DNA of 64,000 nucleotides from an uncultured Candidatus Binatia bacterium (GCA_965219905.1 CBDCOS010000002.1:284625-348624), one strand, 5' to 3'; shown: positions 13,498 through 64,000, counted from the first letter of the stretch. Notes: generated by a model from the sequence alone, not told the origin. Translations and numbers: made by a program.

Positions 13498-14691
13498 ATG
13501 CGCTCGGCCTTGGTCCGATACCACGAGATCGCCCTCAAACGCGGCAACCGCGCCTGGTTCGTCGAGCATCTCAAAAAGAACCTCAGCACCGCCCTGCGCG
13601 GAATGGGCCTCAAGGAGATCCGCAACGCTTCCTCGAGACTCCTTCTCAACTTCAACCACGACGTACCGCACGACGAGTTAACGGAGCGGCTCCGGCGGGT
13701 CTTCGGCATCGCCAACTTCTCCCTGGTGGAACGTACCGACGCCGACATGCCGGCCCTTGGCGCACACGTCCTGGAAGCCCTCCAGGGACAGTCCTTCGAC
13801 TCCTTCCGAATCGAGACCCGGCGGGTGGACAAACGTTTTCCGCTGACCTCCAACGACATCAACCGCGAGCTGGGCGCCCTGGTCCAGGCCCGCTCGGGCG
13901 CGCGGGTGGACCTCACCCGGCCCGAGTTGACGGTGTCGGTGGAAATCCTGCCATCGAGCGCTTTCGTGAGCCTGCACAAGCTGCCCGGCCCGGGAGGCCT
14001 TCCGGTAGGCGCCAGCGGACGGCTGGTCTCGCTTGTCTCCGGGGGCATCGATTCGCCGGTGGCCTCGTACCGGATGATGCAGCGCGGCTGCCGTCTCGTC
14101 TTCGTACACTTCCACAGCAGTCCGTTCCTGGACCGCTCGTCCCAGGACAAGTCCAGGGCTCTCGTGGACATGCTCACCCGCTACCAGTTCCTGTCGCGGC
14201 TCTATCTCGTGCCGTTCGGAGAGGTCCAGCGCCGCATCGTCGCCGCCGTGCTGCGGCCGCTCCGGGTGGTGATCTACCGGAGGATGATGCTGCGGATCGC
14301 TTCCGTCATCGCCGCCCGGGAGCGCGCCCGGGCGCTGGTGACCGGCGAGAGCCTGGCCCAGGTGGCCTCCCAGACGTTGCCCAACATCGCGGCCATCGAG
14401 GAAGCCTCGCGGTATCCGGTGCTGCGGCCGCTCATCGGCATGGACAAGCAGGAGATCATCGACCAGGCCATGGCCATCGGCACCTTCGAGACCTCGGTCC
14501 AGCCCGATCAGGACTGCTGTCAGCTCTTCGTGCCCAAGCACCCGGCGGTAAAGGCCACCGTGCGGCGGGTGCGGGAGGCCGAGGCCTCGCTCGACGTGGA
14601 CGAACTCGTGGGCCTGGGAGCAGACCACGCCGAGATCGAACGCTTCTACTACCCCGAACCGGACCAGAGCGACACGCCGAAGGTTGCCTGA
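13498..14691 (+). CDS. thiI: tRNA 4-thiouridine(8) synthase / tRNA sulfurtransferase ThiI (THUMP + PP-loop)
   Basis: Start MRSALVRYHEIALKRGNRAWF (ThiI N-terminus); PP-loop SGGIDSPVA; ORF-track N-terminal extension (13027) overlaps the cupin gene and is rejected. Confidence 0.8.
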   Translation: MRSALVRYHEIALKRGNRAWFVEHLKKNLSTALRGMGLKEIRNASSRLLLNFNHDVPHDELTERLRRVFGIANFSLVERTDADMPALGAHVLEALQGQSFDSFRIETRRVDKRFPLTSNDINRELGALVQARSGARVDLTRPELTVSVEILPSSAFVSLHKLPGPGGLPVGASGRLVSLVSGGIDSPVASYRMMQRGCRLVFVHFHSSPFLDRSSQDKSRALVDMLTRYQFLSRLYLVPFGEVQRRIVAAVLRPLRVVIYRRMMLRIASVIAARERARALVTGESLAQVASQTLPNIAAIEEASRYPVLRPLIGMDKQEIIDQAMAIGTFETSVQPDQDCCQLFVPKHPAVKATVRRVREAEASLDVDELVGLGADHAEIERFYYPEPDQSDTPKVA

Positions 14692-14705
14692 ACCGGGCAG
14701 TGCAG

Positions 14706-16121
14706 ATGACCACCATCCGATCCTTCATCCGTGACACCTGGCAGGCCAGTATCATCCCGACGCTGACGGAGTACATCGCCATCCCCAACGAGTCGCCGGC
14801 GTTCGACGCGCAGTGGCGGGAGCACGGGCACATGGACCGGGCGGTGGAGCTGTTCTCGCGCTGGGCCACGGCTCAGGACATTCCGGGCCTGGAACTCCAC
14901 GTGGCCCGGGCCGAAGGGCGCACGCCGCTCCTGCTCATGGAGATACCCGGGACAGGCCCAGGGACGGTGCTGCTCTACGGTCATCTGGACAAACAGCCTC
15001 CCATGGAGGGGTGGCGTCCGGGGCTGGGGCCGTGGACGCCGGTGCTGGAGGACGGCAGGCTCTACGGCCGGGGCGGCGCGGACGACGGCTACGGCATGTT
15101 CGCGGCCCTGACGGCGGTGAAGGCGCTGAAGCTCGAATCCATACCCTGCGCGCGTTGCGTCGTCATGATCGAGGCCTGCGAGGAGAGCGGCAGCTTCGAC
15201 CTCCCCCACTACGTCGACGCGCTGGCGGACCGCATCGGCACCCCGGACCTGGTCGTGTGCCTGGACTCCGGATGCGGCGACTACGAACGGATGTGGGTCA
15301 CCACCTCGCTCCGGGGCGTGATCAACGCCACGCTGTCGGTGTCGACCCTCAGCGAGGGAGTCCATTCCGGCGCCGCCAGCGGCATCGTGCCGTCGAGCTT
15401 CCGTATCCTCCGCCGCCTGTTGAGCCGCCTGGAGGACCAGGACACGGGACGGATCCTGCCGGCGGGCCTGCAAGCGGACATCCCGCCCGACAGGCTGGCG
15501 CAGGCCAGGGCGGCGGCGGAAGTGCTCGGGGCGGGATTGCACGAAGGCTATCCCTTCCATCCCGGCACCGCGCCGGTGGCCGACGACATCTCCGAGCTGC
15601 TGCTGAACCGCACATGGCGGCCCCAGCTCGAGATCATCGGCGCGGCCGGCCTCCCAAACCTGGAGCAGGCCGGCAACGTGCTGCGCCCGGAGACCCGGGC
15701 GAAGCTCTCGTTGCGTCTTCCCCCTACCGCCGATCCCGGCGCGGCGGTAGCCTGCCTGAGGGATACCTTGACCACGGACCCGCCCTACGGGGCCAAGGTG
15801 ACCTTCGACCCCGGCCAGGGCACCGGCGGCTGGAACGCGCCGCCGTTCGCGCCGTGGCTGGAAGAATCCATGGACCGTGCGTCCCGCGAGTTCTTCGGCA
15901 AGGACGCCTGCGCCACGGGAGAAGGCGGCACCATCCCCTTCATGGCCATGCTGGCCGAGAAGTTCCCGGAAGCACAGTTCATGATCACCGGAGTGTTGGG
16001 TCCCAAGTCCAACGCCCACGGACCCAACGAGTTCCTGCACATCGAAACCGGCGTCAACCTCACGGGCTGCGTCGCGCGGGTGCTGCAGGACCACTACAAG
16101 GCCAAAACACAGGAGGTTTGA
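14706..16121 (+). CDS. M20 family metallopeptidase (dipeptidase / ArgE-DapE-like)
   Basis: HLDKQPP...GRGGADDGYG metal-binding motifs; internal start MTTIRSFI chosen within long ORF 13476..16121. Confidence 0.75.
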   Translation: MTTIRSFIRDTWQASIIPTLTEYIAIPNESPAFDAQWREHGHMDRAVELFSRWATAQDIPGLELHVARAEGRTPLLLMEIPGTGPGTVLLYGHLDKQPPMEGWRPGLGPWTPVLEDGRLYGRGGADDGYGMFAALTAVKALKLESIPCARCVVMIEACEESGSFDLPHYVDALADRIGTPDLVVCLDSGCGDYERMWVTTSLRGVINATLSVSTLSEGVHSGAASGIVPSSFRILRRLLSRLEDQDTGRILPAGLQADIPPDRLAQARAAAEVLGAGLHEGYPFHPGTAPVADDISELLLNRTWRPQLEIIGAAGLPNLEQAGNVLRPETRAKLSLRLPPTADPGAAVACLRDTLTTDPPYGAKVTFDPGQGTGGWNAPPFAPWLEESMDRASREFFGKDACATGEGGTIPFMAMLAEKFPEAQFMITGVLGPKSNAHGPNEFLHIETGVNLTGCVARVLQDHYKAKTQEV

Positions 16122-16123
16122 CT

Positions 16124-17188
16124 ATGGGATACCGCACGTTGCAGGCACGACTTCTATCGATACTGGGCTGCCTTGTCCTCGCAGTCTCGACGTTGGGCGC
16201 TCCGTCCGGCAGCCCGGCCGCGGACGACACGTTCTTCAAGGGCAAGACCATCCGCATCGTGGTAGCCTTCTCCGTGGGCGGCGGTTTCGACCTCTATTCG
16301 CGCACCATAGGGCGTCACATGGGTCGCTATATTCCGGGGAATCCGCGGTTCCTGGTGCAGAACAGGACCGGGGCGGGAGGACTCATATCGGCCAACTACA
16401 TGTACAGGAAGGCCAAACCCGATGGCCTGACCATCGGGAATTTTCCTGGAAGCCTCTTTTGGGCCCGCCTCTACGGGCAGAAGGGAATCCAGTTCGTTTC
16501 CAGCAAGTACGAGTTCCTCGGAGTCCCGGAATCGACCATTTCCGTTTGTGCGTTCACCAAGGCGAGCGGCATTACGGACGTGACGAAATGGATGAACTCG
16601 CCCAGACCGGTCAAGTTGTCCGGCACGGGTCCGGGCAATTCCACCAACGACGGCCCCCGATTGCTGAACGCCGCGCTTGGCCTGCCCATCAAGCTGATCG
16701 AGGGGTACGGCGGCGCGCCCGGCATGCTCCTGGCGGCCGACAAGGGCGAGGTGGACGGTATCTGCGGACTGAGCTGGACAGCCTTGACCGCCACCTGGGG
16801 AGCGAAGTTCAAGTCCGGAGATGCGGTGCCGGTCCTGCAGATGTCTCCGAAGAAGCACAGCGCGCTTCCGGATGTCCCTCTGGATATCAGCCTTGCCAAG
16901 ACCGACGAGGCACGGCTGCTCATCAAGACCGGCATCCATGACCCTGCCGCGCTCACCCGCATTTACGCGCTGCCTCCGGGCACGCCGCCGGAACGCGTGG
17001 AGATCCTGCGGACGGCTTTCATGAAGACGATGCGGGATCCGCAATTCCTGGCCGACGCCAAGAAGACCCGCCTCTACATCGACCCTTCGCCCGGCACAGA
17101 GGTGCTGAAGGTCGTGAAGTCGCTGGACGCGCTGTCACCCGAGGTGGTCCAGAAGCTGAAAGACATTCTCTTTGCCAAGCAGAAGTGA
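16124..17188 (+). CDS. tripartite tricarboxylate transporter substrate-binding protein (TctC/Bug family), orphan
   Basis: Signal peptide MGYRTLQARLLSILGCLVLAVSTLGAPSGSPAADD then Bug-family core; no adjacent tctAB. Confidence 0.75.
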   Translation: MGYRTLQARLLSILGCLVLAVSTLGAPSGSPAADDTFFKGKTIRIVVAFSVGGGFDLYSRTIGRHMGRYIPGNPRFLVQNRTGAGGLISANYMYRKAKPDGLTIGNFPGSLFWARLYGQKGIQFVSSKYEFLGVPESTISVCAFTKASGITDVTKWMNSPRPVKLSGTGPGNSTNDGPRLLNAALGLPIKLIEGYGGAPGMLLAADKGEVDGICGLSWTALTATWGAKFKSGDAVPVLQMSPKKHSALPDVPLDISLAKTDEARLLIKTGIHDPAALTRIYALPPGTPPERVEILRTAFMKTMRDPQFLADAKKTRLYIDPSPGTEVLKVVKSLDALSPEVVQKLKDILFAKQK

Positions 17189-49814: not shown

Positions 49815-50969
49815 TCAGGCCCTGCCCGTCTCGGGGTCCAGGCCGTAGAAGCGGGCGACGTTGTCCACCAGCAGCTTCCGCTTGGTGTCCTCGCCGATGT
49901 CGGTGCGCCCCAGGAAGACGCTCACCGAGTCCACCAGCCGGTCCCCGTGCGGGATGTCGGAGCCGTAGAGCCAGCACTCGTCGCCGAACTCCTCGATGGC
50001 AAACGGCAGCAGCCGCTCGTCCACCTCGAAGCCGAAGTAGATCTGGCCTCTGCGGATGTACTCCTCCGGCTTGTGCCTGCCCAAGTAACCCCGGTTGAAA
50101 TCCACGCCGGCGCGGGCGCCGTCGAGGCCGCTGTACTCCGCCACCCGCTCCACCACCGCCGGCACCCAGGAACAGCCGGCCTCCAGGAACGCGATGCGGA
50201 GGTCGGGATAGCGGTCGGCGATGCCCTTGGAGATAACCCGCTGGAAGGCGAACTGGACCGTCAGCCAGAAGGCCATGCTGGTCTTGTCGTGGTGCGTGTC
50301 GCAGACCTCGCCCAGGGCCCGGAAGCTGTGGCCGGTATGCACCGCCACCGGCAGCCCGGCGGCCGCGGCCGCCTCCCAGACGGGCTCCATGCAGTCGTCG
50401 TCCACCCGGTGGCGGCCGGTCATGCCCAGCATCATGACGCCCACCGAGCCCATCGCCTTTGTCCGCTCGACCTCGCGAGCGGACGCCTCGGGATCGATGG
50501 GGTCGATGATGGTGACCCACTTGAGCCGGTCCGGCGCCTGGGCGGCCATGTCCGCGATCCAGTTGTTGTACGCACGCATCATGGCCACCGACAGCTCGCG
50601 GTCAAAGGTAATCGGGTAGGAAAGGAACATGGTGGGATAGATGACCTGAACCTGCGTGTTTTCGCGGTCCAACTGCTCGAGGCGAGCCGCCACCGTGCGC
50701 AGCTCGGCGCTCTCCACCGGGTCTGCCGCGTTGATGCCGGGCGTAACCTTCGCCGGCCGGCCGTCCTTGCTCAAGGGGAAACCCGCCTGCTGGTACGGGC
50801 CGGTCCGGACCGGGAACGCCCGGGTGTCGATCAGCCAGCGCAACGCGCGGTCGGGGCCGATCTCGATCACCTCCGGCCTGCGGGACCGGAGGTCGGGATC
50901 CCAGTACTTGTCGGAAAATGTGACCTCGGATTCGGAAACGTGTCCGTCCGCGTCCCACGCCTTGATCAT
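49815..50969 (-). CDS. amidohydrolase_2 family protein
   Basis: Start MIKAWDADGHVSE (internal M43 of longer ORF); ...GSDIPHGDR... C-terminal motif. Confidence 0.75.
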   Translation of the reverse strand: MIKAWDADGHVSESEVTFSDKYWDPDLRSRRPEVIEIGPDRALRWLIDTRAFPVRTGPYQQAGFPLSKDGRPAKVTPGINAADPVESAELRTVAARLEQLDRENTQVQVIYPTMFLSYPITFDRELSVAMMRAYNNWIADMAAQAPDRLKWVTIIDPIDPEASAREVERTKAMGSVGVMMLGMTGRHRVDDDCMEPVWEAAAAAGLPVAVHTGHSFRALGEVCDTHHDKTSMAFWLTVQFAFQRVISKGIADRYPDLRIAFLEAGCSWVPAVVERVAEYSGLDGARAGVDFNRGYLGRHKPEEYIRRGQIYFGFEVDERLLPFAIEEFGDECWLYGSDIPHGDRLVDSVSVFLGRTDIGEDTKRKLLVDNVARFYGLDPETGRA

Positions 50970-51108
50970 GGTCTTCCCTTCCCTGCTGTCTTTGCTGCTG
51001 ATTCCGCCGGAACAATCTATTGAAACGGTAGGACGGGCGCAATCCGCCTCGCATCGCCAAGCCCCTTCTGGTACACGATGGAGCGAGCACCTCAAAAGGG
51101 GAGACGAT

Positions 51109-52713
51109 TTGAGTTATTCCTCCATTGATCCTTCGGCACTACAGGCGCTGTTGGCCTCGGACACCAGACACGCTTGCATCGACGTGCGCGAGCGCGGCGA
51201 GTTCGCACGGGCGCAGATCGCCGGCACCAGTCCGGTCAACCGGGGCGCGCTGGAGCTCCGGATTCCGGCGATGGTGCCGGACCGGCGCGTTCCCGTGGTG
51301 GTATGTTGCGACGACGGTCGCCGTAGCGGGCTGGCGGCGGAGACACTGGGAAGCATGGGCTACACCGACATCCGGATCCTCGCCGGAGGCATCGACGAGT
51401 GGCAACGACAGGGCCTGCCGGTGCGCTCGGGCTGGGGGGTGCACGGCAAGGAATACGGCGAGCACGTCGCCCACGGCGGCAACGTCACCCACATCGACGC
51501 CGTGGAGCTGGCGCGTCGGCGCAAGGCCGGGGAAGACGTGGTGGTGGTGGACGTGCGGTCGCGGGAGGAGTACCTCCGCGGCCACGTGCCGGACACCTAC
51601 CACATCCCCGGCGGCAATCTCTTGCTGGACGCGCCGCAGCTTCCTTTGGCGGAGGACACGACGCTGGTGGTGAGCTGCGCCGGCCGTACCCGCGGCATCC
51701 TCGGCGCGCAACTGCTTCATGACAACGGCTTCACCAACGTCTACGCCCTGGAGAACGGCGTCATGGGCTGGTTCCTGGCGGGCGGCAAAATCGCCACCGG
51801 GCCGGGCAAGGAGGTTCCCCGGGCGCCCTCGCCGGATCGGTCGGGCCGGATCCGTGAGGCCACCGAAGCACTCGCTTCGCGCGAACCCATCCCCCGCTGC
51901 TCGCGCGACGACTTCCGCGCCGTCTACGAGTCCGGCGAGACCTTCTATTTGCTGGACGTGCGGCTCCCCGAGGAATACGAAGCAGGCCACATACCCCGCG
52001 CGGCATCCCTCCCCCTGGGGCAGATGGCGCTGGCCCACGAGAACTTCCTCACGGTGCGAGGGGCGCCGGTGTTCGTGGTCTCGGACGACGACCTGCGGCC
52101 GGTCTGGGCCGCCGCCCTGCTGCGGAACCTGGGCTTCCGCGACGTGTCCATCCTCGACGGCGGCGTTCCGGGATGGAGCGCCACGGGCCTCGAGTTGGAG
52201 CAAGGAGCGCCGGAGCTCCCGGTCTTCGGATTGGAGGAGGCACAGGCCCAGGCGACCTTCATCGACCCGCCGGCGCTTCAGGAACACCTCGGATCATCCG
52301 CTCTCGCGCTGGACGTCCGCAGCATCGGCGAGTACGGCTTCGCCCACATTCCCGGCACCGGTTGGCTCCCGCGCGGCCGGCTGGAGCTGGATATCGGACG
52401 GGTGGCACCGGACAAGGACCTGCCGCTGGCAGTCGTGTGCGACAACGGCGTCCGTTCCGCGCTGGCCGCGGGCACCCTGCGTCAACTGGGCTACGGCGAC
52501 GTCCGGGTGCTCCAGGGCGGGACACGGGCATGGGAAAGCGATGGCCGGGCGCTGGAGGACGGGCTCGAGGGCACCGGCGTCTCCACCGAGGACGCGCAGG
52601 CCGACTTCGGCCACAGCGTCTGGCACGGCGCGCTGGGCAAGTCCCGCGAGGACATGGAACGCTACCTGTCGTGGGAGATCGACCTGGTCAAGGACGAGAA
52701 ATCAGCGTCCTGA
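51109..52713 (+). CDS. multi-rhodanese sulfurtransferase (four tandem rhodanese domains; three with catalytic Cys, third domain Cys replaced by Ser/Asp)
   Basis: TTG start after GGGGAG RBS; active-site loops CDDGRRS, CAGRTRG, SDDDLRP (inactive), CDNGVRS. Confidence 0.75.
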   Translation: MSYSSIDPSALQALLASDTRHACIDVRERGEFARAQIAGTSPVNRGALELRIPAMVPDRRVPVVVCCDDGRRSGLAAETLGSMGYTDIRILAGGIDEWQRQGLPVRSGWGVHGKEYGEHVAHGGNVTHIDAVELARRRKAGEDVVVVDVRSREEYLRGHVPDTYHIPGGNLLLDAPQLPLAEDTTLVVSCAGRTRGILGAQLLHDNGFTNVYALENGVMGWFLAGGKIATGPGKEVPRAPSPDRSGRIREATEALASREPIPRCSRDDFRAVYESGETFYLLDVRLPEEYEAGHIPRAASLPLGQMALAHENFLTVRGAPVFVVSDDDLRPVWAAALLRNLGFRDVSILDGGVPGWSATGLELEQGAPELPVFGLEEAQAQATFIDPPALQEHLGSSALALDVRSIGEYGFAHIPGTGWLPRGRLELDIGRVAPDKDLPLAVVCDNGVRSALAAGTLRQLGYGDVRVLQGGTRAWESDGRALEDGLEGTGVSTEDAQADFGHSVWHGALGKSREDMERYLSWEIDLVKDEKSAS

Positions 52714-52728
52714 GACGCCGGTGAAACC

Positions 52729-53283
52729 TCAAGGACCCGGCAACCTGCCGGGGAAGCCGTGGAAGATCAAGCCGCCCACGAAGCCCACGAAAGGCGGCAG
52801 CACCAGACTGGCCAGGAACCGCGCCACGGTTATCTCCACGCCCAGTATCGGAATCTCCCATATGATGACCCGATGGAAGCCGATGAGGGACCACGACGTC
52901 AGATAGGCGATGATGGGTCCGGCGCCGGCGCCCGAGGCCATCAGTGAGGCCACGATGGGAAAATGCATCATCGGCCCACCGGGCGTGCACGCCCCGGCCA
53001 CGGTGCCGATCATGAGCCCGCGTATGCCGGAGCCCTCGCCGAGCCACTGCGAAACCAGGTCGGTGGGAAGAATCACCTGGATCAGCCCGGCCACCGCGAA
53101 GGCAAAGATCATCTTGGGAAGCGTGGCCATCAGGAGCTGACCACCGCTCGACAAACCGTCCACCGCATGCTGGACACCGTACGAACGGAGCACGTACACG
53201 CCGACGACGATGCTGGCCGCGAACATGAACCAGAAACCCCCGTCCATACCGAGCCTCCCTGTTAAGCTGCGTTTCTTGCGCAT
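52729..53283 (-). CDS. small integral membrane permease (DUF318/ArsP-like or sulfur-transport-like) with conserved Cys in GACTPGGP
   Basis: ~185 aa, 5-6 TM helices; convergent with the tetra-rhodanese gene. Confidence 0.35.
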   Translation of the reverse strand: MRKKRSLTGRLGMDGGFWFMFAASIVVGVYVLRSYGVQHAVDGLSSGGQLLMATLPKMIFAFAVAGLIQVILPTDLVSQWLGEGSGIRGLMIGTVAGACTPGGPMMHFPIVASLMASGAGAGPIIAYLTSWSLIGFHRVIIWEIPILGVEITVARFLASLVLPPFVGFVGGLIFHGFPGRLPGP

Positions 53284-53721
53284 GCCGCGGCCAACCTCCC
53301 GAACCAAACGAACCCCTCAAAGGCGTAGGCAACTTGACACAAATGGAGTCCATCCTTACTGAGTAGTCGTAACCACTTGATTATCAAACACTTTCTTTAG
53401 TTTCGTTCGGCGAACACCATCACCGTAAGCGAATCGCAAGCGGTTTGAGTACAACAACCGCATCCCTCAGCGCGCGCTTGTCCGACTACTCGCCGCCTCG
53501 GAACGCAAAAGCGGTAAGCGTTCTATCGGGCCGTGGAATATCTCGGACATTGAGTCATGCCGTGCAGCCCCCGCTTTCAACGGCTGGCGGATGATCCGTT
53601 CAGGTGGAATTCGGATTCGACGACCACGGGAGGCCAAACTCACCGCAACGCCAAGGAGGTAAGGAGTGGTTGCGACAGGCCACAGGCCACGCGGACTCGG
53701 CCGAGCGGTCCGCGTGGGAAC

Positions 53722-54549
53722 TCAGACCCGCGAATCGAGTTTGATTCGAACACTCTGCCACTCCCCAGCACCTTGGTCCAACGGAATGTTAGGCTCGAGT
53801 TCGCGAGGACGATATTCGCGTAGTCTTTCCTGCCGCATATCCCATACGTGAATGACGGCTCGTTGTGCCGCGCCGGAGGCGTTGGCCCATTCGTTCCGGG
53901 TAAGGAAGATAGAGTCCGAAAGCTTGCTCTTGACTTCGACTAAGCGTGTAACCGTAAGCCCTTCCGGATTACGGTCGTAGGACAAAATGTCGTAGCCAAG
54001 CGAGTTGTCCTCAAGAGATACCCACTTGGGCTCGTCGCGGATTCCGAGCCCCTTCACGCGTCTTCGCTCATGCTCGAACGAGAGCCGTTCAGCGAGTCTG
54101 GCACGCTTCATCTTCTCAGCATCCGACACGCCCCGCATCATGGCTGCCACACGATCCCACCACTCAATGACTTCATCATCCGGCACTTCATTAAACAGCC
54201 CAGCTTCACGAAAGCACTGCGCATGGTCTCTGTCGAGAGCTGTCCTTACCTTTTCTCGTCCAAGAGGGACGAGACGTAGCCAGCGTGGCTCAACGAGCCG
54301 TACCCATTCAAAGACGAAATGCCGAAGACAATTCGTGGTCTGTTTCCATTCCACTGACGAATCAAGCACCCGACGAAGGGCGAGACCACCGCGGAAATCC
54401 AACCCGGATGCACTCGACCTGAGGCTGTTCAGGCTCGCTACGGCCTGTGCATCGGTCAGCGAAGGATAGTCCGTGCAAAATGAACGTAGTTCAAGAAACG
54501 CAAGAAACGCGGCCATCGAGAGGGCGTCATCAATCTTGCGGGCCTGCAT
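53722..54549 (-). CDS. DUF3883 (NOV_C; restriction-endonuclease-like fold) domain protein
   Basis: C-terminal ...GYDILSYDRNPEGLTVTRLVEVKSKLSDSIFLTRNEWANA... matches the DUF3883 core; start overlaps the SNF2 gene stop by 1 nt. Confidence 0.6.
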   Translation of the reverse strand: MQARKIDDALSMAAFLAFLELRSFCTDYPSLTDAQAVASLNSLRSSASGLDFRGGLALRRVLDSSVEWKQTTNCLRHFVFEWVRLVEPRWLRLVPLGREKVRTALDRDHAQCFREAGLFNEVPDDEVIEWWDRVAAMMRGVSDAEKMKRARLAERLSFEHERRRVKGLGIRDEPKWVSLEDNSLGYDILSYDRNPEGLTVTRLVEVKSKLSDSIFLTRNEWANASGAAQRAVIHVWDMRQERLREYRPRELEPNIPLDQGAGEWQSVRIKLDSRV

Positions 54550-56441
54550 CAGAACCCTTCATCCTCGCTGTAGGTTGCGCGCCCCTCAAGTTCGTTGATC
54601 AGATCGACGAGATCCTCTGGATTCGTGCTGTAGTCGATCGGCTCCTCGGCCTCCTCTTCATCAAGGGCGATCTGGTGAAGATCCTCATCGTCAAGGAGTC
54701 GTTGCATGGCCCGCACCTTGGTCGCTAGACGGCGGCTCACGGAATAGTCCACGCAGCCCAACCCCTTGGGTGCAGTCGTCTGGAAGATGAACACATTGGT
54801 TTCGGTGTCTGGTGGGAGCCCGAGACGATGAATACGGTCGATTGATTGCACGTAGTGGGTAGTGTTGTATGACCGATCGAGGTAGATCGCGTCGTGACAG
54901 ACCTGATGCAGGCTGATGCCTTCTCCGACCGCTGCCGGATTGGCAACTAAGGTCATGCACGTGGGATCCTCATGGAAACGCTTTAGCTGCCCTTCTCGCG
55001 ATTCCGGTTCCTCAGGGTCTCCGGAGGGTACGGCGCCATAGACCGACGCTGGGTTAAGGTCCGCGAGCATGTAACTCATCTGCTGGATCGTGTCCACGAA
55101 GATACTCCAGATGACGGTCTTGCGGCCTTCTCCTGCCAGTCTTCGCGCAAGGTCGCGCACCGCAAACATCTTGGTAGAGGGTCCGTCATCGAGGACTTGC
55201 TGCACGATACCTGAATCGATATAGGGAGCATCGTTCAGCATCGCGGTTGCAGCGAGGACCGGATTCGACGACAGTTGAAGGAGTCGTATCACTGAACGGC
55301 GGGCCTTGATGACATCGACTCCGCTTCCAGACTTGAGGGAGCTCAGGTCTCGAAGCACCTCGTTCCGGACAACGGAGTAGAGGGCGGTCTGGCCTCTGCC
55401 CATTGGGACAGGGATGAAGTGGCGGGTGATGGGGGGCAGGCCCAGCTCTTGTTTCGTGGTCCGGACGTAGAGGTTTGAGATTACATCGCGCGGTGACTTT
55501 CCTGCTGCAATCTGGATGCCCAGCCCCGCCCCTGGCCAAAGGAAGTCAAGCTGGGAGCGCAGATCATTCGGTGACTGCGGCATCGGTGTTCCACTCAGGA
55601 TGTCCCGACGCAGTGGAAGCGAAGCGGCATTCAGTAGGACAATACCGCGTTTCACTGCGGTTCCCCCCTTCACCCGATGGGATTCGTCGAGAACGAGATG
55701 GACTGGATTTTGCGCGAGGAAATTGGCGAAAAGACCTGGAATCGAAAGCAGCTGTTCGTAGTTGAGCACGAGCCGATTCGAGCCCGAACGAAGCCCTTCT
55801 CTTACGACGGCTGCACTGCCCGTCAGTATGAGGAAGGGCTCCCTGACCCACTCTGGAGCATCATCAGCAATACACTCGTCAACCACCTCGCTCCAGGCGC
55901 TGAACGCACTCTTCGGACCCACGACGACGAGTTTCTGGTCTGGCTGCCTAGTAAGGAGGTGCAGCGCGAACGTGACTGTGGTTTTGCCCGCGCCGGGCAC
56001 TGAGAAATTCGCACCGTTCAGGAGACCCACGAGACGCTTCAGGTCCCGCATCTGGAAGGGGCGAAGCGCCCGCCGCGTAAAGCCGTAGTCATTTAAACGT
56101 GTCTGAATTTCGTCTTCATCAAGGGCGCGGGGCGTGGCGTCGCGGGCAGCCTTGATGCTTTGGTACTGTGCGATGAATTTGTCAATCTCAGCCTTTGCCG
56201 CTTGGCTTGGCCGAAACCTGAACCCGCGCTTTTTCTGGAGCGGTGCGAACTCCCTGATGACGGACAGAACTCCAGGCCAGGGTAGCGTGATGGTGTTCTC
56301 GTAAAGCGCCAGATCGTCCGTGGCAGCAGCAGACTGGCGGATCCGATCCCACAGCGAGCTTCCAGGATCGGTTTTGTTCGTTAGGGTTCCGGTGAGCCGT
56401 TCTGAATCGTAGTCGACAAGGATTATCGCAGGTTCACTCAT
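54549..56441 (-). CDS. SNF2-family (SWI2/SNF2) DNA helicase/translocase
   Basis: Motif I FSVPGAGKT, motif II LVLDESHR, SNF2 signature LSGTPMPQSPNDL, C-terminal helicase motifs ...LVANPAAVGEGISL... and ...DRIHRLGL... Confidence 0.8.
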   Translation of the reverse strand: MSEPAIILVDYDSERLTGTLTNKTDPGSSLWDRIRQSAAATDDLALYENTITLPWPGVLSVIREFAPLQKKRGFRFRPSQAAKAEIDKFIAQYQSIKAARDATPRALDEDEIQTRLNDYGFTRRALRPFQMRDLKRLVGLLNGANFSVPGAGKTTVTFALHLLTRQPDQKLVVVGPKSAFSAWSEVVDECIADDAPEWVREPFLILTGSAAVVREGLRSGSNRLVLNYEQLLSIPGLFANFLAQNPVHLVLDESHRVKGGTAVKRGIVLLNAASLPLRRDILSGTPMPQSPNDLRSQLDFLWPGAGLGIQIAAGKSPRDVISNLYVRTTKQELGLPPITRHFIPVPMGRGQTALYSVVRNEVLRDLSSLKSGSGVDVIKARRSVIRLLQLSSNPVLAATAMLNDAPYIDSGIVQQVLDDGPSTKMFAVRDLARRLAGEGRKTVIWSIFVDTIQQMSYMLADLNPASVYGAVPSGDPEEPESREGQLKRFHEDPTCMTLVANPAAVGEGISLHQVCHDAIYLDRSYNTTHYVQSIDRIHRLGLPPDTETNVFIFQTTAPKGLGCVDYSVSRRLATKVRAMQRLLDDEDLHQIALDEEEAEEPIDYSTNPEDLVDLINELEGRATYSEDEGF

Positions 56442-57798
56442 CAGTGCTTTCGCTGCTTGAGGGATAGGTAGAGGTGTACCGCAGGAGTGCTTTTTCCAGG
56501 GTCTCGATCCTACTCTTCACAGCGTCCAGTTGCTTACGAATCGAATCGTACGTTCCCGGATCGGCCTTCGAGAGATCGGCACTCATGAGTTTGGTGTTGG
56601 CCGCGCTGATTGCGTTCAAGGCTTGGTTGCCGACAACTTCCTGTTGGGCGTGTTCCCGTATGGAATTGCAAACCTCGATGAATTCGCCTACAACAGCTTC
56701 GCGGCGGACCGGATCCGGGTCATCGAAGACCTCGATCAGGTTCTCCAGCGAGGTTTCGGAACCGTTTGCGTCGTCGTCGAAGTCGATATCCACGCCTTCG
56801 GCTTCGTCGTCCGTCCCCTCCGTCGGCGGTGTTGCGGTAAGGTCGATCGAGAGCCTGTCGCTCAAGGCGGCGATGACCTCGTCGGTCTTGTTCTCAAAGC
56901 TGAAATTGTACCCGTAAAGGCGGCCATCAAGCCGCTTCGAGTTCGAGAGCAGCGTCCACGCAAACCGGCGTTTCACCTCCAGTACTTCACCTTCGACCCC
57001 TTTTAAGGCCTTCGCGAGGTCATTGAAGGCCTGCTGCGCATCCTCGACAACTTCGTACTTGTTCGGTTCGCGCACCCATTCCTTCAGATAGATATCGACC
57101 TCAGTGAGAGCACTCTCGGCAATCGCGACGTCCGTGGCTCTCTTCTTCATTAGGCCGGCCACATAGGCAGGCTTCTTTCCTGCCTTAAGCATCTCTCGGA
57201 TCGCGATCGACTCCTCGATCCAGCCATACGGCAGCCGCGTCTCTGCGCGCATCTGGAGCCGGACTTCGAGATCGACGGTCTCCTGCGGAGTGATGTTCTC
57301 GGGCAGAACCGCACAATCAACGTGACTGAAGTGCCTGAACCGACCTAGGTCGTTTAGAAGTAGCTCGCGCATCGCCGCAAGGCGACGGTTCCCGTTCACG
57401 ACGACACCCCGGCGGGTAATCAAGAGTGGTTCGCGTTGCTCTTCCTCCTTAAGCTGGTCCATGATGGGCACGACTGAGGTCGCACGCCCCCTGGTCGCGA
57501 AGTCTACCAGTATCCTGTGTTGTGCGTCTTGGGCTGATTCGTTTTCTTGGCCAGCGCTGAAGAAGTCCTCGCGGACTTCCCATTCATGGATGTGCTTGAG
57601 TTGCGCTGTACAGGTACGGAAATTCGACATCCGGTAGATCGGAAGATTGATATCCAACCGCACAATGGGCAGGTCGTTTCGTTTGTTCTGGTACTCGTAT
57701 AACTTATGCGTTTCGTTAGATGCATTCACTGCGTCCGCGATTATCGTTTCGCGTTCGTGTGGCTTCTGGATATTGACTTGGTACAACACCATCTTCAC
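56434..57798 (-). CDS. ParB/Srx-fold (ParB N-terminal / DUF262-like) domain protein with long helical C-terminal region
   Basis: ...EPLLITRRGVVVNGNRRLAAMRELL... resembles the ParB GxRR / DUF262 DGQQR arginine-finger box; 454 aa; 8-nt overlap with the SNF2 gene. Confidence 0.5.
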   Translation of the reverse strand: MKMVLYQVNIQKPHERETIIADAVNASNETHKLYEYQNKRNDLPIVRLDINLPIYRMSNFRTCTAQLKHIHEWEVREDFFSAGQENESAQDAQHRILVDFATRGRATSVVPIMDQLKEEEQREPLLITRRGVVVNGNRRLAAMRELLLNDLGRFRHFSHVDCAVLPENITPQETVDLEVRLQMRAETRLPYGWIEESIAIREMLKAGKKPAYVAGLMKKRATDVAIAESALTEVDIYLKEWVREPNKYEVVEDAQQAFNDLAKALKGVEGEVLEVKRRFAWTLLSNSKRLDGRLYGYNFSFENKTDEVIAALSDRLSIDLTATPPTEGTDDEAEGVDIDFDDDANGSETSLENLIEVFDDPDPVRREAVVGEFIEVCNSIREHAQQEVVGNQALNAISAANTKLMSADLSKADPGTYDSIRKQLDAVKSRIETLEKALLRYTSTYPSSSESTDE

Positions 57799-57824
57799 TA
57801 CGGCTCCTCTCAGTAGTTTTACGG

Positions 57825-58286
57825 CTATTCGAACGCAATGAGCATAATCGGGACCGAAATTATCCGGTCGAACACGTTGAGTTCCGCCCAGATTCGGTCG
57901 ACGTGGGCAATGTTACTGCCAAGCTCAGCCGCGGCTTCCTTCGTCGGAACCGCGAGAATAGCACACTCAATCTCCCGGCTCATGTACAAGTGCTGGAGCT
58001 TTAGCACGTCATATGCATAGCGACTAATGTTTCCGGTCTGAAGCTGAAATGCCAAGTCGTCCTTGCGGGCGAACACGCTCAACTCGACCGCTGCATCGAT
58101 CGCCGCGTTCAGCCCCCATCCATCGGAGGTGAGCTCCGTGCGTACGTGGTCTCGAATCTCCCGCGTAGATCTGGCCTGTACCTTGATCTGAGGGGCCGCA
58201 AAGATGTCTGTCGCCCACTCGTAGAGATCCCTTCGCTTCCAGATCCCAACGCCGTTGTGGTGCGAGTAGGTCGCGTCAAACCTCAT
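57825..58286 (-). CDS. hypothetical 153-aa protein translationally coupled (ATGA) to the methyltransferase; candidate restriction/nuclease partner
   Basis: No recognised family; position directly downstream of an orphan-looking MTase is where a Type II REase would sit. Confidence 0.25.
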   Translation of the reverse strand: MRFDATYSHHNGVGIWKRRDLYEWATDIFAAPQIKVQARSTREIRDHVRTELTSDGWGLNAAIDAAVELSVFARKDDLAFQLQTGNISRYAYDVLKLQHLYMSREIECAILAVPTKEAAAELGSNIAHVDRIWAELNVFDRIISVPIMLIAFE

Positions 58287-59212
58287 GTTTCAGCCTGCCT
58301 GCGTGGCGGTTCATAAACGGGCTTGTCCATTGGCCGAGTGCGCAGGCTTCCCGCCCGCAGGGCATGGACACGTTCCCATGCAATATCGATGTACTTCTTC
58401 TCAAGATCGCAGCCGTAAGCCTTTCGGTTGTGCTTGAGGGCTGCGATTGCGGTTGAACCGACTCCGATATACGGGTCGAGCACGCTGTCGCCCTCCTTCG
58501 TCAGTGCGAGCACGAGGCGTTCGATGAGTCCCACCGGGAACTGACATGGATGCTCGGTCTTTTCGACATGATTGTTCTTGACATTTGGGATGTCCCATAC
58601 GTCAGATGGATTCTTGCCTAGCGGGTTCCCAGACAACTCCCCCTTCCTGGGACCCTTGAAGAACCGCTTCTGCGGATACTTCGAGGGAACGCGAACCGCA
58701 TCCAGATTAAAGACGTAGTCATCCGATTTCGTGAACCACAGGATGGTCTCGTGGCGCCCGGAGAGCCTTCTAGTGCAGTGCAGACCGTGCCCGAAAGTCC
58801 AGACGATTCGGTTGCGCAGGAACAAGCCATGGTTCTTGAACAGCTCATACAGGATGATATCGAGAGGGAAGACTTCGCCGTTGTCCACGTGGTTGCCTAC
58901 CTGCCAGCAGATCGAGCCCGAAGGATGGAGCAACCGCACGGCTTCTGCGATGCACGCGGCCTGTTCCTCGATGTAGCACTCCAGGGACGTGCGCCGCTCG
59001 TACTCCTTACCGAGATTGTACGGTGGCGAAGTCACGATGAGTTGCATCGACTCGTTGGCTTGCCGACGCATGTACGCAAGATTATCCTCGCAGGCTATAT
59101 CCGCGCTTGCGTCTGTGGCGAGGCGGGTGATCAAGTCAGGGGCAAGATTCTTGTTCATCAACCTATACCTCATCCGCCAGTGGCGTTGGATGGCGGCACG
59201 ACGAGCCGCCAA
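58283..59212 (-). CDS. beta-class DNA amino-methyltransferase (N4-cytosine or N6-adenine; SPPY motif IV favours m4C)
   Basis: Motif IV IVTSPPYNLG N-terminal to motif I DPYIGVGSTAIAA (beta order); ORF-track start is TTG at 59212, ATG candidates at 59173 and 59158. Confidence 0.8.
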   Translation of the reverse strand: MAARRAAIQRHWRMRYRLMNKNLAPDLITRLATDASADIACEDNLAYMRRQANESMQLIVTSPPYNLGKEYERRTSLECYIEEQAACIAEAVRLLHPSGSICWQVGNHVDNGEVFPLDIILYELFKNHGLFLRNRIVWTFGHGLHCTRRLSGRHETILWFTKSDDYVFNLDAVRVPSKYPQKRFFKGPRKGELSGNPLGKNPSDVWDIPNVKNNHVEKTEHPCQFPVGLIERLVLALTKEGDSVLDPYIGVGSTAIAALKHNRKAYGCDLEKKYIDIAWERVHALRAGSLRTRPMDKPVYEPPRRQAET

Positions 59213-59486
59213 TGAGGACGTCGAATGCTTCCAGCACTCTGCCGAGCTTCAGCAACCAGGAGCCGTCGAGGTGATGTCTTGGTCAACCATGTGGCATGGA
59301 TCATCCGCATAGAAGTTCGCTCCGTAAAAGGCTGCCGCTGCGGGATCGTTGTTGATCACAACCGCGATCGTGGACCCTGTTGCGGCACCACCGAGGGAAA
59401 GTTCCGCCGCACCCCGGAAGTAAATCGAGCACGCGCGGCGATGGCCGGTTCGCGGCTCAAGAACCTCCTCTGAAGGACGCAGTCGA

Positions 59487-59681
59487 TCACGGCTCTTCAG
59501 ACGCCCACTGATCCCTATAAAATAGGTCCTGCTGAGGATCGAAGGCTTCCTTGTCCAGGTGCTCCCGGACAAGCCGGGCGATCAACGGCGACTTCTTGTA
59601 TCCCATTTTTCGGCAGTAGGACTCAAACCGGTCAGCTTCCGTTTTCGGCATGAGCACCTGCACCCGAACCAAATCAGCCAT
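59487..59681 (-). CDS. ribbon-helix-helix (CopG/Arc-like) DNA-binding protein, first gene of the island operon
   Basis: MADLVRVQVLMPKTEADRFESYCRKMGYKKSPLIARLVREHL: beta-strand + two helices pattern typical of RHH; AT-rich upstream region with direct repeats. Confidence 0.45.
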   Translation of the reverse strand: MADLVRVQVLMPKTEADRFESYCRKMGYKKSPLIARLVREHLDKEAFDPQQDLFYRDQWASEEP

Positions 59682-60091
59682 CTGCACCAGACTCCATATC
59701 TGACAGACTACTATATCTGTGATGCAGGATCAACATAAATGTGCCTTTCTGCACACACCTGTGCTCCCTGGAGCCTACCAACACATTTTGGGGTTGTGGA
59801 GACGCGGCTTCGACGCACGGCGGAGTCGTTTGGGGTCGGGGCCGCAATCCGCTGACGCCTCGTGGCGCAGGACATCGAGGATGAGCGACGCGGCGTGGTG
59901 ACTGGCACATGATGCGCCGTTTGCGCTCCCGCGCGGGTTCGCCAACTGGCGGCGATACATTTGAGCCATGCCAAGGGGAGCATTGTGCAGCGCCGGGTTG
60001 GTCTCTGAAGAGGGCATCCACGCCGGGCGATCGGCGGCATCGCTGTTGTGGCGGCCGGCGCGGCGAGACGCCGCCAAACAATGAGCCCGCC

Positions 60092-60660
60092 ATGACGAAG
60101 CCGCTCGGACTGAGCCTGGGCACGGCCGCGGTCCGCACCCTGATTGCCGGCCTTGCCATGGCGCTGCTCCTGGCGCCGGCAGAGGCGGACGCAACCGCCG
60201 TCCGGGCCGGGATTCCGCGCATCGCCGTGGTCGCCGCCTTCGCGCTGGAACTCGCGACCCTCAGTGGAGAGATTGGGAAAGGCGCGCAATCGGTGGGGTG
60301 GAGTTCACCACCGGCGTTCTGGAGGTCCGGCGCGTGGTGCTGTTCCTGAGCGGGATCAGCCTGGTAAATGCGGCGACGACCGTGCACCTGGCGCTGGACG
60401 ACTTCTTCATCGAGGGGTCCTGTTCTCGGCCATCGCGGGCGGGGCGTATCCTGGACTGAACATCGGCGATGTGGTGATCGTGATCGCGCGCCGCTGGGGA
60501 CAGCATCTGGAGCTGGGCGGTCGCGCAAGGGCATCACGCGGACAACGACGCCGGCTACCGCATACTCAGCGGCCAATGCCACGTTGGACAAGGCGGCTTC
60601 GGAGCCGAGCAATTCGTGGGTACATGCGCGCCAACGTGATCTGTTACTTGGTAGTACCGC
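60092..60660 (+). pseudogene. decayed PNP_UDP_1 (purine nucleoside phosphorylase / MTA-SAH nucleosidase-like) gene with signal peptide; at least 3 frameshifts
   Basis: Fragments in three frames: MTKPLGLSLGTAAVRTLIAGLAMALLLAPAEADATAVRAGIPRIAVVAAF...; ...LFLSGISLVNAATTVHLALDDFFIEG...; ...GVLFSAIAGGAYPGLNIGDVVIVIARRWGQHLE... Confidence 0.4.
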
Positions 60661-60687
60661 AACCATACAAGCAGTGGGGAGAAGTAC

Positions 60688-61437
60688 ATGAACGCCAAGA
60701 TTGGGCACCTGATCCGCCAACTCACCATGGCTCATCCTCGATGGACCAATACACAAGTCGCTACGGAAGTCCGCCGTCGCATCCCGGGAGCCAAAACTTC
60801 GCCTCGTAGCGTCTCGTCTACGAAGTCCAGGACGAGGAGCCAGAGCAGGAGCTCGGCGCCGGTCCAAACCAACGAAGCAAGCTCAGCTTGCGACGTCGGT
60901 GATTACCGTCCAGGCCCAGCAAACTCAGCGATCCATACCACGCGGTCGTCCTATCGCGAGGCTGTTCTCGAACACCTGTTTACCGGCGAACTGCTTCGAA
61001 CGCTGTGGCTTCGCGGCGTTCACGCCGAGGTTCTTCGACCGTTCGTTGACGACGCGGGCTATGATCTCGTCGTCCACGCCAACCGCATTACCCGTCATAT
61101 ACAACTCAAGAGTTCGTTCTGGCGCGCGAAGACTGCTCGACAGAAGGTGCATCAACAACTCGGACTCAAGCCAAGCGGTTGCGTCGTGTGGCTCCGGTTC
61201 CACGAGGCGACGCTTCAATTCGAAGAATACCTCTGGTTCGGCAACCCGCCGGGCGACCCACTTCCGGACCTCTCCAGATTCGCTATCGCGCGCCACACCA
61301 AAGGAGACGCTAGCGGTCGAAAGGCCGAAAGGCCCGCGATAAGAGTGATTCCCAAGGGGCGGTTCGTCAGCATAAGCACCATGGAGCAGCTTGCCGAGAA
61401 GCTGTTCGGATCAAAAGCGCGTCCCCGCGACACGTGA
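60688..61437 (+). CDS. hypothetical protein with possible PD-(D/E)xK nuclease-like core (D-x-DLVV...IQLK)
   Basis: 249 aa; N-terminal Ser/Arg-rich low-complexity stretch; ...FVDDAGYDLVVHANRITRHIQLKSS... is compatible with a restriction-endonuclease-like fold. Confidence 0.3.
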   Translation: MNAKIGHLIRQLTMAHPRWTNTQVATEVRRRIPGAKTSPRSVSSTKSRTRSQSRSSAPVQTNEASSACDVGDYRPGPANSAIHTTRSSYREAVLEHLFTGELLRTLWLRGVHAEVLRPFVDDAGYDLVVHANRITRHIQLKSSFWRAKTARQKVHQQLGLKPSGCVVWLRFHEATLQFEEYLWFGNPPGDPLPDLSRFAIARHTKGDASGRKAERPAIRVIPKGRFVSISTMEQLAEKLFGSKARPRDT

Positions 61438-63271: not shown

Positions 63272-64000
63272 CTACAATTCGAGGTCCATTTCGTTCTCCT
63301 TTTCTTCCGGATCAAGCGTCGTTTCCTGGACGGGCTCGGGTTCCGGCCCACGCGAGCGGTCCTCCTGGGGTTCGGGTTCCGGTTCCGTGTCCCAGTATTC
63401 GAGACCGTCCGCGTCCAGTCCGGCGCTCCGTTCCGGCGATTTCAGATCGTCCTCCCAGTCGAGGTCATGCAACGGTTCACGCCCCGCGTCCGGCTGAAGC
63501 TCGGGTTCGTACTCGCGTTCCATGCGGTCCACATGACCCGCGTCCCGCTCCTCGGGCGGTTCGAGGCCCAACTCCGGCTCGTGCGCGGCCTCTTTGACGA
63601 CTCCATCCAGCGCCGAGATCCGCTCTCCGGTTGCCCTTTCCAGTTGTTCGGAGAGCTTCCTGGCATCGTCGGTGACCAGCTCGGCATGGTCCCGGGCCCG
63701 GCTGATGGCCACGTAGAAGGCTCTTTGGTTCGTCAGATTCGGATTGCCGGCGGGCATTGCGGCCACGATATGGTCCACCGTCTTGCCCTGAAAAGAGTGA
63801 ACCGTGGACGCCCAGCCCCGGTCCATGTGCCGGAGTTGCGGATCGTCTTCGTCCAGTCCGGCTTCCTTTCCGTTCCCCAGACGGAACCGGACGCTGTCCT
63901 TTTCGATGGATTCCACCTCCGCCGTCTCCCCGTTCACGAGTTCCGAGGCCGGATCGTTGCGCGTCCACCGGACCCAATCGCCCGCCCGAAGCTCCATCTC
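63272..64000 (-). CDS. C-terminal part of an SF1 RecD/TraA(MobF)-like helicase, possibly a conjugative relaxase (5' end outside window)
   Basis: Helicase motifs V-VI ...STVHSFQGKTVDHIV... and ...AFYVAISRARD..., followed by acidic Pro/Glu-rich tail. Confidence 0.5.
   Translation of the reverse strand, partial: EMELRAGDWVRWTRNDPASELVNGETAEVESIEKDSVRFRLGNGKEAGLDEDDPQLRHMDRGWASTVHSFQGKTVDHIVAAMPAGNPNLTNQRAFYVAISRARDHAELVTDDARKLSEQLERATGERISALDGVVKEAAHEPELGLEPPEERDAGHVDRMEREYEPELQPDAGREPLHDLDWEDDLKSPERSAGLDADGLEYWDTEPEPEPQEDRSRGPEPEPVQETTLDPEEKENEMDLEL

Follow-up and report, generated by a model that had tools for sequence, protein, structure and literature searches.

Gene content of the locus

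The DNA under study is a stretch of 64,000 nucleotides (nt) from an uncultured Candidatus Binatia bacterium (GCA_965219905.1 CBDCOS010000002.1:284625-348624), referred to below as the window. Between positions 53722 and 59687 it carries six open reading frames (ORFs) on the minus strand (Table 1). Five of them make up the cassette analysed here, which encodes a DNA methyltransferase (MTase), a small protein related to restriction endonucleases (mini-REase), a ParB-like protein, a Snf2-family ATPase and a DUF3883 protein. The guanine plus cytosine (GC) content of the region is 0.55-0.59, compared with 0.62-0.73 across the remaining window. Both the six ORFs and the low-GC island had been described in the original prediction, made from the sequence by a model, and were found as described. 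Four of the Pfam families to be searched for (PF01555, PF00176, PF00271 and PF13020) matched in the expected genes.

Table 1. Coordinates and annotation of the six minus-strand ORFs in the window
Feature	Position	Strand	Length	Matches and remarks
RHH-like small ORF (RHH, ribbon-helix-helix)	59487-59687	(-)	66 aa	neighbour outside the conserved cassette
MTase	58283-59158	(-)	291 aa	PF01555 2.7e-54; PADLOC MTase_II 4e-82
mini-REase (BstYI/BglII/BamHI fold)	57825-58286	(-)	153 aa	PF09195 Endonuc-BglII; PADLOC REase_II
ParB-fold protein	56434-57798	(-)	454 aa	ParB/Srx domain, helix-turn-helix (HTH) region and coiled coil
Snf2-family superfamily 2 (SF2) ATPase	54549-56441	(-)	630 aa	PF00176 and PF00271
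DUF3883 (NOV_C) PD-(D/E)xK nuclease-fold protein	53722-54549	(-)	275 aa	PF13020 3.2e-11

The cassette genes are tightly packed. The MTase and mini-REase genes share a 4-nt ATGA overlap, the ParB-like and Snf2 genes overlap by 8 nt, and the Snf2 and DUF3883 genes by 1 nt. The mini-REase and ParB-like genes are separated by 26 nt, with a ribosome-binding site, GAGAGGAG, inside the gap. That gap had been foreseen together with four overlapping junctions, of which only three were present. No convincing direct repeats or att sites flank the island borders in the window, and no tRNA gene lies nearby. A scan for promoters and terminators gave matches no more frequent than in shuffled sequence, a hairpin 3' of the DUF3883 stop codon was not significant (z = -1.3), and an Rfam scan of positions 53000-61000 returned no match.

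Conservation of the five-gene unit

The homologues in the ParB-like alignment (665 matches, all unnamed or 'hypothetical') provided a profile for locus retrieval. One genome per species was surveyed (185,579 species genomes), which yielded 152 relatives, and 80 loci were kept. Gene presence in each locus was scored by tblastn and family hidden Markov models (HMMs), each gene covering at least 80% of its HMM. All five genes were found in one order and on one strand in 66 of these 80 loci. Seven of the 14 incomplete loci were ended by a contig edge, four were decayed (L014, L023, L031 and L080), and in three (L019, L022 and L077) the four downstream genes were kept and the MTase gene was replaced or lay on the other strand.

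A reverse test was seeded with the mini-REase. Twenty-one members of a distant clade of this family, carrying Cys at position 81, were scanned against metagenome contigs; 268 relatives were obtained, 80 loci were kept and the 39 loci of at least 5 kb were scored. The five genes stood in order in 32 of the 39. The other seven comprised four contig-end cuts, one locus with no MTase within reach (L164), one truncated and decayed locus (L134), and L124, where an AIPR gene is present. Since the same order recurs in 66/80 genome loci and in 32/39 metagenome loci, the arrangement is far beyond chance and the co-occurrence holds in both directions. The mini-REase family seems to be dedicated to the cassette. 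The gene-order search proposed in the original prediction thus found the order kept across phyla from either starting point, for five genes and not for six, the RHH-like ORF being outside the unit. That the five genes form one conserved unit is, in our judgement, practically certain.

The carriers belong to the Alpha-, Beta- and Gammaproteobacteria, Acidobacteriota, Bacteroidota, Verrucomicrobiota, Planctomycetota, Spirochaetota, Bacillota, Nitrospinota and Melainabacteria. At least ten phyla are represented, with soil, marine and human-gut metagenomes among the sources. At the DNA level, the two nearest relatives (79% and 76% identity) are metagenome-assembled genomes (MAGs) labelled Alphaproteobacteria and Nitrospinota; the homology with the window covers exactly 59201..53722, from the MTase to the stop codon of the DUF3883 gene. 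Protein identity to the relatives falls in the order MTase (typically 66-80%, maximum 87%), Snf2 (48-85%), mini-REase (43-88%), ParB-like (31-77%) and DUF3883 (25-76%), so that the MTase gene is the most conserved of the cassette.

It is quite improbable that the cassette consists of two independent neighbours, a Type II restriction-modification (R-M) pair and a separate ParB-Snf2-DUF3883 module. Defence genes do often cluster, and the largest internal gap, with its own ribosome-binding site, falls between these two halves. Nevertheless, such neighbours would not be expected to show near-total co-occurrence in both directions amid unrelated flanks (flanking ORFs formed no conserved clusters), nor short estimated gaps at all four junctions (medians -4 to +9 nt in complete loci). 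Moreover, the mini-REase remains beside the ParB-like, Snf2 and DUF3883 genes in those loci whose MTase has been exchanged or relocated. In the Bacillota loci and in L019, L104 and L167, the four restriction genes are kept and paired with a different or relocated PF01555 MTase.

Regarding these exchanges, the upstream MTase was substituted in L022 (7844-9322(-)), L077 (6607-8031(-)), L167 (9876-10796(-)), L019 and L104. In the Bacillota and a few other loci the substitute is either a longer (474-492 aa), divergent PF01555 protein or a convergent gene located downstream. A different exchange was observed in L124 (ODAJ012171384.1, 7075-11057), in which the genes after the MTase and a mini-REase of the Cys81 clade encode an AIPR protein of 613 aa (PF10592, 7e-36) and an integrase of phage type. 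The case is single and may represent an effector swap, which would make the MTase-plus-reader pair a portable sensor module.

The mini-REase

The mini-REase gave 27.3 bits with PF09195 (cutoff 26) and 4e-5 with the PADLOC REase_II model. Its predicted model matched the folds of BstYI (21.1, with 150/153 residues aligned), BglII (19.5), OkrAI (17.2) and BamHI (15.7). The family profile retrieved 387 clusters at 50% identity, 256 of them at E <= 1e-10, and nearly all members have 150-156 aa.

The active sites of OkrAI (E71/D86/E99/E101) and BamHI (E77/D94/E111/E113) are established, as is the reading of the inner base pairs by OkrAI N104, the counterpart of BamHI N116 (PMC3025578). Residues were mapped onto OkrAI and BstYI via HMM alignments. 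OkrAI E71 corresponds to N60 of the window protein, a position that is variable in the family, and D86 corresponds to S70, where family members carry T, S, K or A. OkrAI E99 (BstYI E128) falls on Q81, which is Q or H in the 77 locus relatives; in 150 cluster representatives this position is occupied by C (89), Q (32), T, S, H and others, and by E or D never. On the other hand, the counterpart of OkrAI E101 and BstYI Q130 is Q83, invariant and the same as in BglII and BstYI, and the base-reading Asn of the TGN motif is retained as the invariant N86. R89, D93, K96, N125, R131 and E135 are almost invariant.

Both metal-binding carboxylates of BamHI, OkrAI, BglII and BstYI are consequently replaced in the 77 locus relatives and the 150 representatives (D by T/S/K, E by Q/C/H/T/S). 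From their loss, and from the retention of the fold and of the base-reading residue, we infer that the mini-REase is a nuclease-dead, sequence-specific DNA reader.

It was also considered whether the mini-REase might still cut DNA, as a minimal Type II endonuclease whose active site is non-canonical. In that case the cassette would have a plain Type II R-M pair at its core, and the ParB-Snf2-DUF3883 genes would form an obligate accessory module, for example processing or degrading DNA after the first cut or acting as a second line against methylated phages. In Pfam and NCBI the family does carry the name of a BglII/BstYI restriction endonuclease; the ATGA overlap of the MTase and mini-REase genes, present in the window as well as in each of the four gene-called loci that were inspected, is like that of classic R-M pairs; D93, K96 and E135 are invariant; and in L124 the pair occurs without the other three genes, beside the AIPR gene. 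However, D93 sits in an AYD motif that active BstYI shares and is not a new catalytic residue, the two canonical positions are lost throughout the family, and the pair is almost never found without its three partners. An active mini-REase is, on this evidence, unlikely.

As to its target, every solved member of the BstYI/BglII/BamHI fold reads NGATCN, from which a palindrome with a GATC core was guessed. When the 64 palindromic hexamers were ranked by under-representation in the pooled loci L001-L080 and the window, CTCGAG came first and all hexamers were depleted, in a ranking that has no control genome set. AGATCT, GGATCC and CGATCG took ranks 2, 4 and 5 of 64 (observed/expected 0.55-0.62), which is compatible with the guess but, in a set of that kind, leaves it weak.

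The methyltransferase

The MTase is a beta-class amino DNA methyltransferase and the predicted self-marking component of the cassette. An alternative TTG start at 59212 would extend it from 291 aa, the length of the recorded product, to 309 aa. Across 73 homologues two motifs are kept, SPPY (at residue 44 of the 291-aa protein) and DPYIGVGS. Regarding the base that it modifies, SPPY is typical of N4-cytosine MTases and suggests N4-cytosine methylation, but the nearest solved relative, M.RsrI (1e-34), is an N6-adenine enzyme.

The ParB-like, Snf2 and DUF3883 proteins

The ParB-like protein begins with a ParB/Srx nucleotide-binding domain at its N-terminus, followed by an HTH region in the centre; residues 323-347 make up a disordered acidic linker, and residues 363-442 a dimerising coiled coil at the C-terminus. 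The only Pfam match was ddrB-ParB at 0.08, and PADLOC and NCBIfam gave none. It shows the ParB N-domain fold and the GxxRxxA arginine motif of ParB/Srx proteins, and in structure it lies closer to partition-type ParB, KorB and PadC. The description as ParB/DUF262-like in the original prediction stood as far as the ParB fold is concerned; for DUF262, no PF03235 match was obtained at E up to 0.1, and the protein carries NGNRR without DGxQR. The evidence points to a canonical ParB-like protein rather than to DUF262.

The Snf2 ATPase matched PF00176 (2.6e-8) and PF00271 (1.8e-5), and its sequence matches in the PDB were SMARCA5, Snf2 and Sulfolobus Rad54-like proteins. The motifs GAGKT (150-154), DESH (252-255) and QSIDRIHRLG (532-541) are kept across 74 homologues, and PADLOC matches to ZorD, DrmD and BrxH were weak and partial. 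The protein is predicted to be a double-stranded DNA translocase. Its first 125 residues are uncharacterised.

DUF3883 has been placed in the PD-(D/E)xK fold by Steczkiewicz et al. (PMC3424549). In the cassette protein, GYD (185-187) and EVK (205-207) are kept across 66 homologues. Its first 140 residues, uncharacterised so far, show rapid divergence. All 120 homologues among the matches listed are short proteins, most of them of 260-300 aa, and the PADLOC matches (PDC-S36, TmtA and PD-T4-1) were weak. The protein is predicted to act as a DNA-cutting or nicking effector. The MTase, the Snf2 ATPase and the DUF3883 nuclease all keep their catalytic motifs.

Genomic context and mobility

The cassette is horizontally mobile and self-contained; its DNA identity of 76-79% to MAGs labelled Alphaproteobacteria and Nitrospinota was counted as support, and its patchy distribution (152 relatives in 185,579 species genomes) as a sign of horizontal transfer. 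In Defluviimonas aquaemixtae (L083 1-21383, OMOQ01000001.1) the cassette lies between two integrases, on an island dense in defence and mobile-element genes: a pair of TIR-domain proteins, ArdC/MPTase-PolyVal, HipA plus its HTH partner, and AbiEii-WYL. In Bacillus atrophaeus (CP073265) its neighbours are Kiwa and a fragment of SIR2, and the MTase gene is convergent and downstream. A Paracoccus plasmid also carries a copy. Toxin-antitoxin pairs and a UvrD-like gene accompany it in L084 and a transposase in L085, and in L086 it is found between housekeeping genes with nothing mobile nearby.

A role as a chromosomal epigenetic or repair module with no part in conflict, for instance in methyl-directed processing of host DNA, appears highly improbable. 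Snf2 and ParB proteins have housekeeping roles elsewhere, but such a role would not fit a patchy distribution shaped by horizontal transfer, the deviant GC content, the islands with integrases and defence genes, or the occurrence of decayed copies.

Alternatively, the cassette might serve a mobile element, as an establishment, anti-restriction or addiction module akin to the polyvalent ParB-MTase-Snf2 proteins of conjugative elements. Polyvalent proteins of plasmids and phages reportedly bring ParB, MTase and Snf2 domains together; an R-M system can work as an addiction module; ArdC is a neighbour of the cassette in Defluviimonas; and a helicase or relaxase-like gene lies 3.5 kb away in the window. 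Nevertheless, the cassette is rare on such elements: among 72,556 plasmids there was only one full-length copy, a set of 2.9 million viral contigs contained four, and the 50,697 phage records searched gave none. Some copies, as in L086, have no mobile-element gene nearby. The proteins are separate and not fused, and a dedicated nuclease with a site reader suits restriction more than anti-restriction. This explanation was considered improbable, and a restriction-like defence role was preferred.

Neighbouring genes

Between the RHH-like ORF and the MTase gene downstream of it there are 328 nt if the MTase starts at the ATG (59158) and 274 nt if it starts at the alternative TTG. The ORF has a codon-position GC (0.63/0.34/0.69) like that of the cassette genes. 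It had been named an RHH gene and the first member of the operon. Its sequence pattern is indeed RHH-like, yet no significant match was obtained in Pfam, NCBIfam, PADLOC or the PDB. Because it has no homologue in any of the 80 related genome loci, lies outside the DNA homology block shared with the nearest relatives, and has its position taken in other loci by unrelated small RHH or XRE-HTH genes, some of toxin-antitoxin type, it was rejected as a sixth component and the system was defined by five genes. It is a lineage-specific neighbour and at most a local regulator.

The gene that had been taken for a relaxase-like neighbour adjoining the operon (63272-63997 (-), cut by the window end) does not adjoin it, and it matched UvrD_C_2 and Viral_helicase1 only. 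In L084, a 909-aa UvrD-like/AAA_22 gene (14367-17096 (-)) lies directly downstream of the cassette; the presence of a UvrD-like gene near the cassette in both places may be a coincidence or may indicate a recurrent neighbour. Between the cassette and the helicase-like gene of the window, an ORF of 249 aa (60688-61437 (+)), set in sequence whose GC content is intermediate (0.63-0.66), gave a weak nuclease-like PDDEXK_5 match (1.2e-4, below cutoff).

On the opposite side, the 3' end of the cassette abuts an ORF of the ArsP_1 permease type (52729-53307 (-)), which covers profile positions 176-266 of 294. It is apparently 5'-truncated on the side facing the cassette, with its N-terminal part lost, and the missing half was not found within the window. 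The island may have been inserted into the ArsP_1 gene. Directly beside the island there is also a long ORF with four rhodanese domains (50656-52713 (+)). A rhodanese/YgaP gene occurs just downstream of the cassette in L086; this shared neighbour is probably a coincidence.

Proposed mechanism

The gene content and the obligatory MTase partner suit a restriction-modification logic, and gene content and context together make methylation-based restriction or defence likely. The original prediction had given the parts only vague roles; the evidence points to the mini-REase as a nuclease-dead reader of the site and to DUF3883 as the cutter. The MTase would methylate a fixed short site on host DNA, and a dimer of the nuclease-dead mini-REase would bind the unmethylated sites on incoming DNA, in the manner of a specificity subunit. 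Bound mini-REase would recruit or license the Snf2 motor, which would translocate along the DNA, and the DUF3883 nuclease, translationally coupled to Snf2, would nick or cut it. As a precedent for this last step we take HmaA, in which a Snf2 helicase is fused to a DUF3883 nuclease and whose nickase activity is required for its protection against phage T4 (PMC11232893). The model up to this point is favoured by a narrow margin of belief, and its core, a dead reader coupled to a Snf2/DUF3883 effector, is about evenly balanced between true and false.

The least certain, speculative step concerns the ParB-like protein, which could be a nucleotide-gated clamp or bridge at the recognised site that holds or activates the motor-nuclease; alternatively, it could autoregulate the operon. 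The clamp is a tentative suggestion that we would sooner doubt than accept. Less likely still is the boldest version, in which a dead Type II enzyme, as a methylation-sensitive specificity subunit, loads a ParB-type, possibly CTP-gated clamp onto foreign DNA, where the clamp recruits Snf2 and DUF3883, giving a new class of nucleoside triphosphate-dependent restriction system.

Some observations weigh against parts of this scheme. The conserved acidic residues D77, D93 and E135 of the mini-REase could conceivably make a non-canonical active site. In a sequence-level comparison with solved structures, the ParB-like profile gave spurious coiled-coil matches only. The E-N pair of what we take to be the ParB 'ENLQR' box seems to be replaced in this protein (EVRLQMR), which makes a CTPase activity doubtful. 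Finally, no Snf2-DUF3883 fusion was present among the 120 DUF3883 homologues listed.

Should the cassette prove protective, it would add a widespread multi-gene system to the restriction-like defences. As judged from model and alignment, the mini-REase would be a clear case of a Type II enzyme that lost catalysis and was kept as a DNA reader, which, if true, would explain how sequence specificity is handed to a separate motor-nuclease. The partition-type ParB fold inside a restriction operon makes roles of ParB clamps beyond chromosome segregation testable; if the clamp is real, it would be the first of ParB type at work in immunity. The pair of MTase and reader, if correctly understood, could perhaps be coupled as a portable sensor to other effectors, as the AIPR variant of L124 hints. 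For annotation, the consequence is that pipelines would label the locus 'Type II R-M' only, overlooking three obligate partner genes. Cultivable carriers include Paracoccus denitrificans DSM 413, Rhodobacter capsulatus SP18, Paenibacillus lautus NBRC 15380 and Bacillus atrophaeus.

Comparison with known systems

No named system was assigned to the five-gene set by PADLOC 2.0 or NCBIfam, and searches of open-access full texts gave no description of the gene set, a scope that excludes closed-access papers, REBASE and current DefenseFinder models. The claim that the composition is not that of a named system was borne out in these resources, the core genes of DISARM, BREX and Zorya being absent. 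The five-gene cassette is real and widespread, and it very probably constitutes a defence system of the restriction-like kind whose composition is unnamed in the resources queried.

With respect to Type II R-M systems, the cassette MTase has intact motifs for S-adenosylmethionine binding and catalysis (SPPY and DPYxGVGS). The mini-REase differs from BamHI, BglII, BstYI and OkrAI in the family-wide loss of the catalytic Asp and Glu, so that a functional PD-(D/E)xK or other catalytic site is not predicted from model or sequence; it is also 40-70 residues shorter than the solved enzymes. Nor is the pair self-sufficient: almost all loci long enough to hold the other three genes do contain them, and the pair lacks these partners only in L124, which has AIPR instead, and in the decayed L134. 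The statement that the system is not classic Type II was right as regards the catalytic site and autonomy, although it missed the fact that the MTase and the mini-REase, with its BstYI/BglII fold, formally make a Type II-like pair. An automated tool would probably call the MTase and the small ORF as a pair and ignore the rest.

The Hma or BREX-related (BR) type 1 system comprises the Snf2-DUF3883 fusion HmaA, the DUF1156 MTase HmaB and the DUF499 ATPase HmaC (PMC11232893; PMC12839542), and like the cassette it brings together an MTase, an ATPase of the Snf2 family and a PD-(D/E)xK nuclease of the DUF3883 type. In the cassette, however, Snf2 and DUF3883 are separate genes, the MTase is of the beta-class PF01555 and not DUF1156, there is no DUF499 ATPase, and the mini-REase and ParB-like protein have no Hma counterpart; no Hma model was among the PADLOC matches. 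BREX, BR and Hma were rejected since neither Pfam nor PADLOC gave PglZ, BrxC, DUF499 or PglX/DUF1156, a weak BrxH match to the helicase lobe being the only one.

DISARM class 1 and ARMADA II are likewise multi-gene, methylation-linked defence systems that contain, besides an MTase, a component of Snf2 type, DrmD or ArmA (PMC13463889), whereas the cassette has neither the DrmA/DrmB (DUF1998) helicase nor the PLD nuclease. DISARM was rejected because DrmB and DrmC were unmatched; DrmA reached 0.0028 over 57 residues of the helicase lobe, and DrmD gave a weak, partial match of 3e-7 confined to the C-terminal helicase lobe (residues 441-576). ARMADA II was rejected on the tested features. For Zorya, ZorA and ZorB are absent from the cassette and ZorD matched over the helicase C-lobe only (3e-9).

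A ParB/Srx domain followed by a DNA-binding domain, as in the cassette protein, is found in the ParB-superfamily defence sensors DndB, SspE, GmrSD and Menshen NsnA and in the CTP-binding ParB, KorB and PadC. This module has been reported or proposed to sense DNA in defence systems (PMC12065111). The cassette protein differs in not being DUF262, in lacking DGxQR, and in having as partners a Snf2 motor and a nuclease of the DUF3883 type; no description of ParB in this combination was found. Menshen and DUF262 systems were rejected on the missing PF03235 match and the NGNRR motif. ParABS was also rejected, no ParA-like gene being present in the cassette or conserved in its flanks; no search for parS was made.

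Type I R-M was rejected, the N6_Mtase match to the MTase being insignificant (0.069) and the HsdS and HsdR models unmatched. Type III was rejected as a classification, since the MTase scored far lower with MTase_III (5e-15) than with MTase_II (4e-82), the ATPase is of the SNF2-rel_dom family, and REase_III was unmatched. Type III and Type ISP enzymes differ from the cassette, whose MTase scores as Type II, whose ATPase is Snf2 and not Res-type, which has a ParB-like protein, and in which recognition would be left to a separate protein of REase fold instead of the target recognition domain of Mod. They share with it, nonetheless, a beta-class MTase, a DNA-moving SF2 ATPase and a PD-(D/E)xK nuclease that acts away from a short site. 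In its mode of action the cassette would most resemble an enzyme of Type III or Type ISP built from separate parts.

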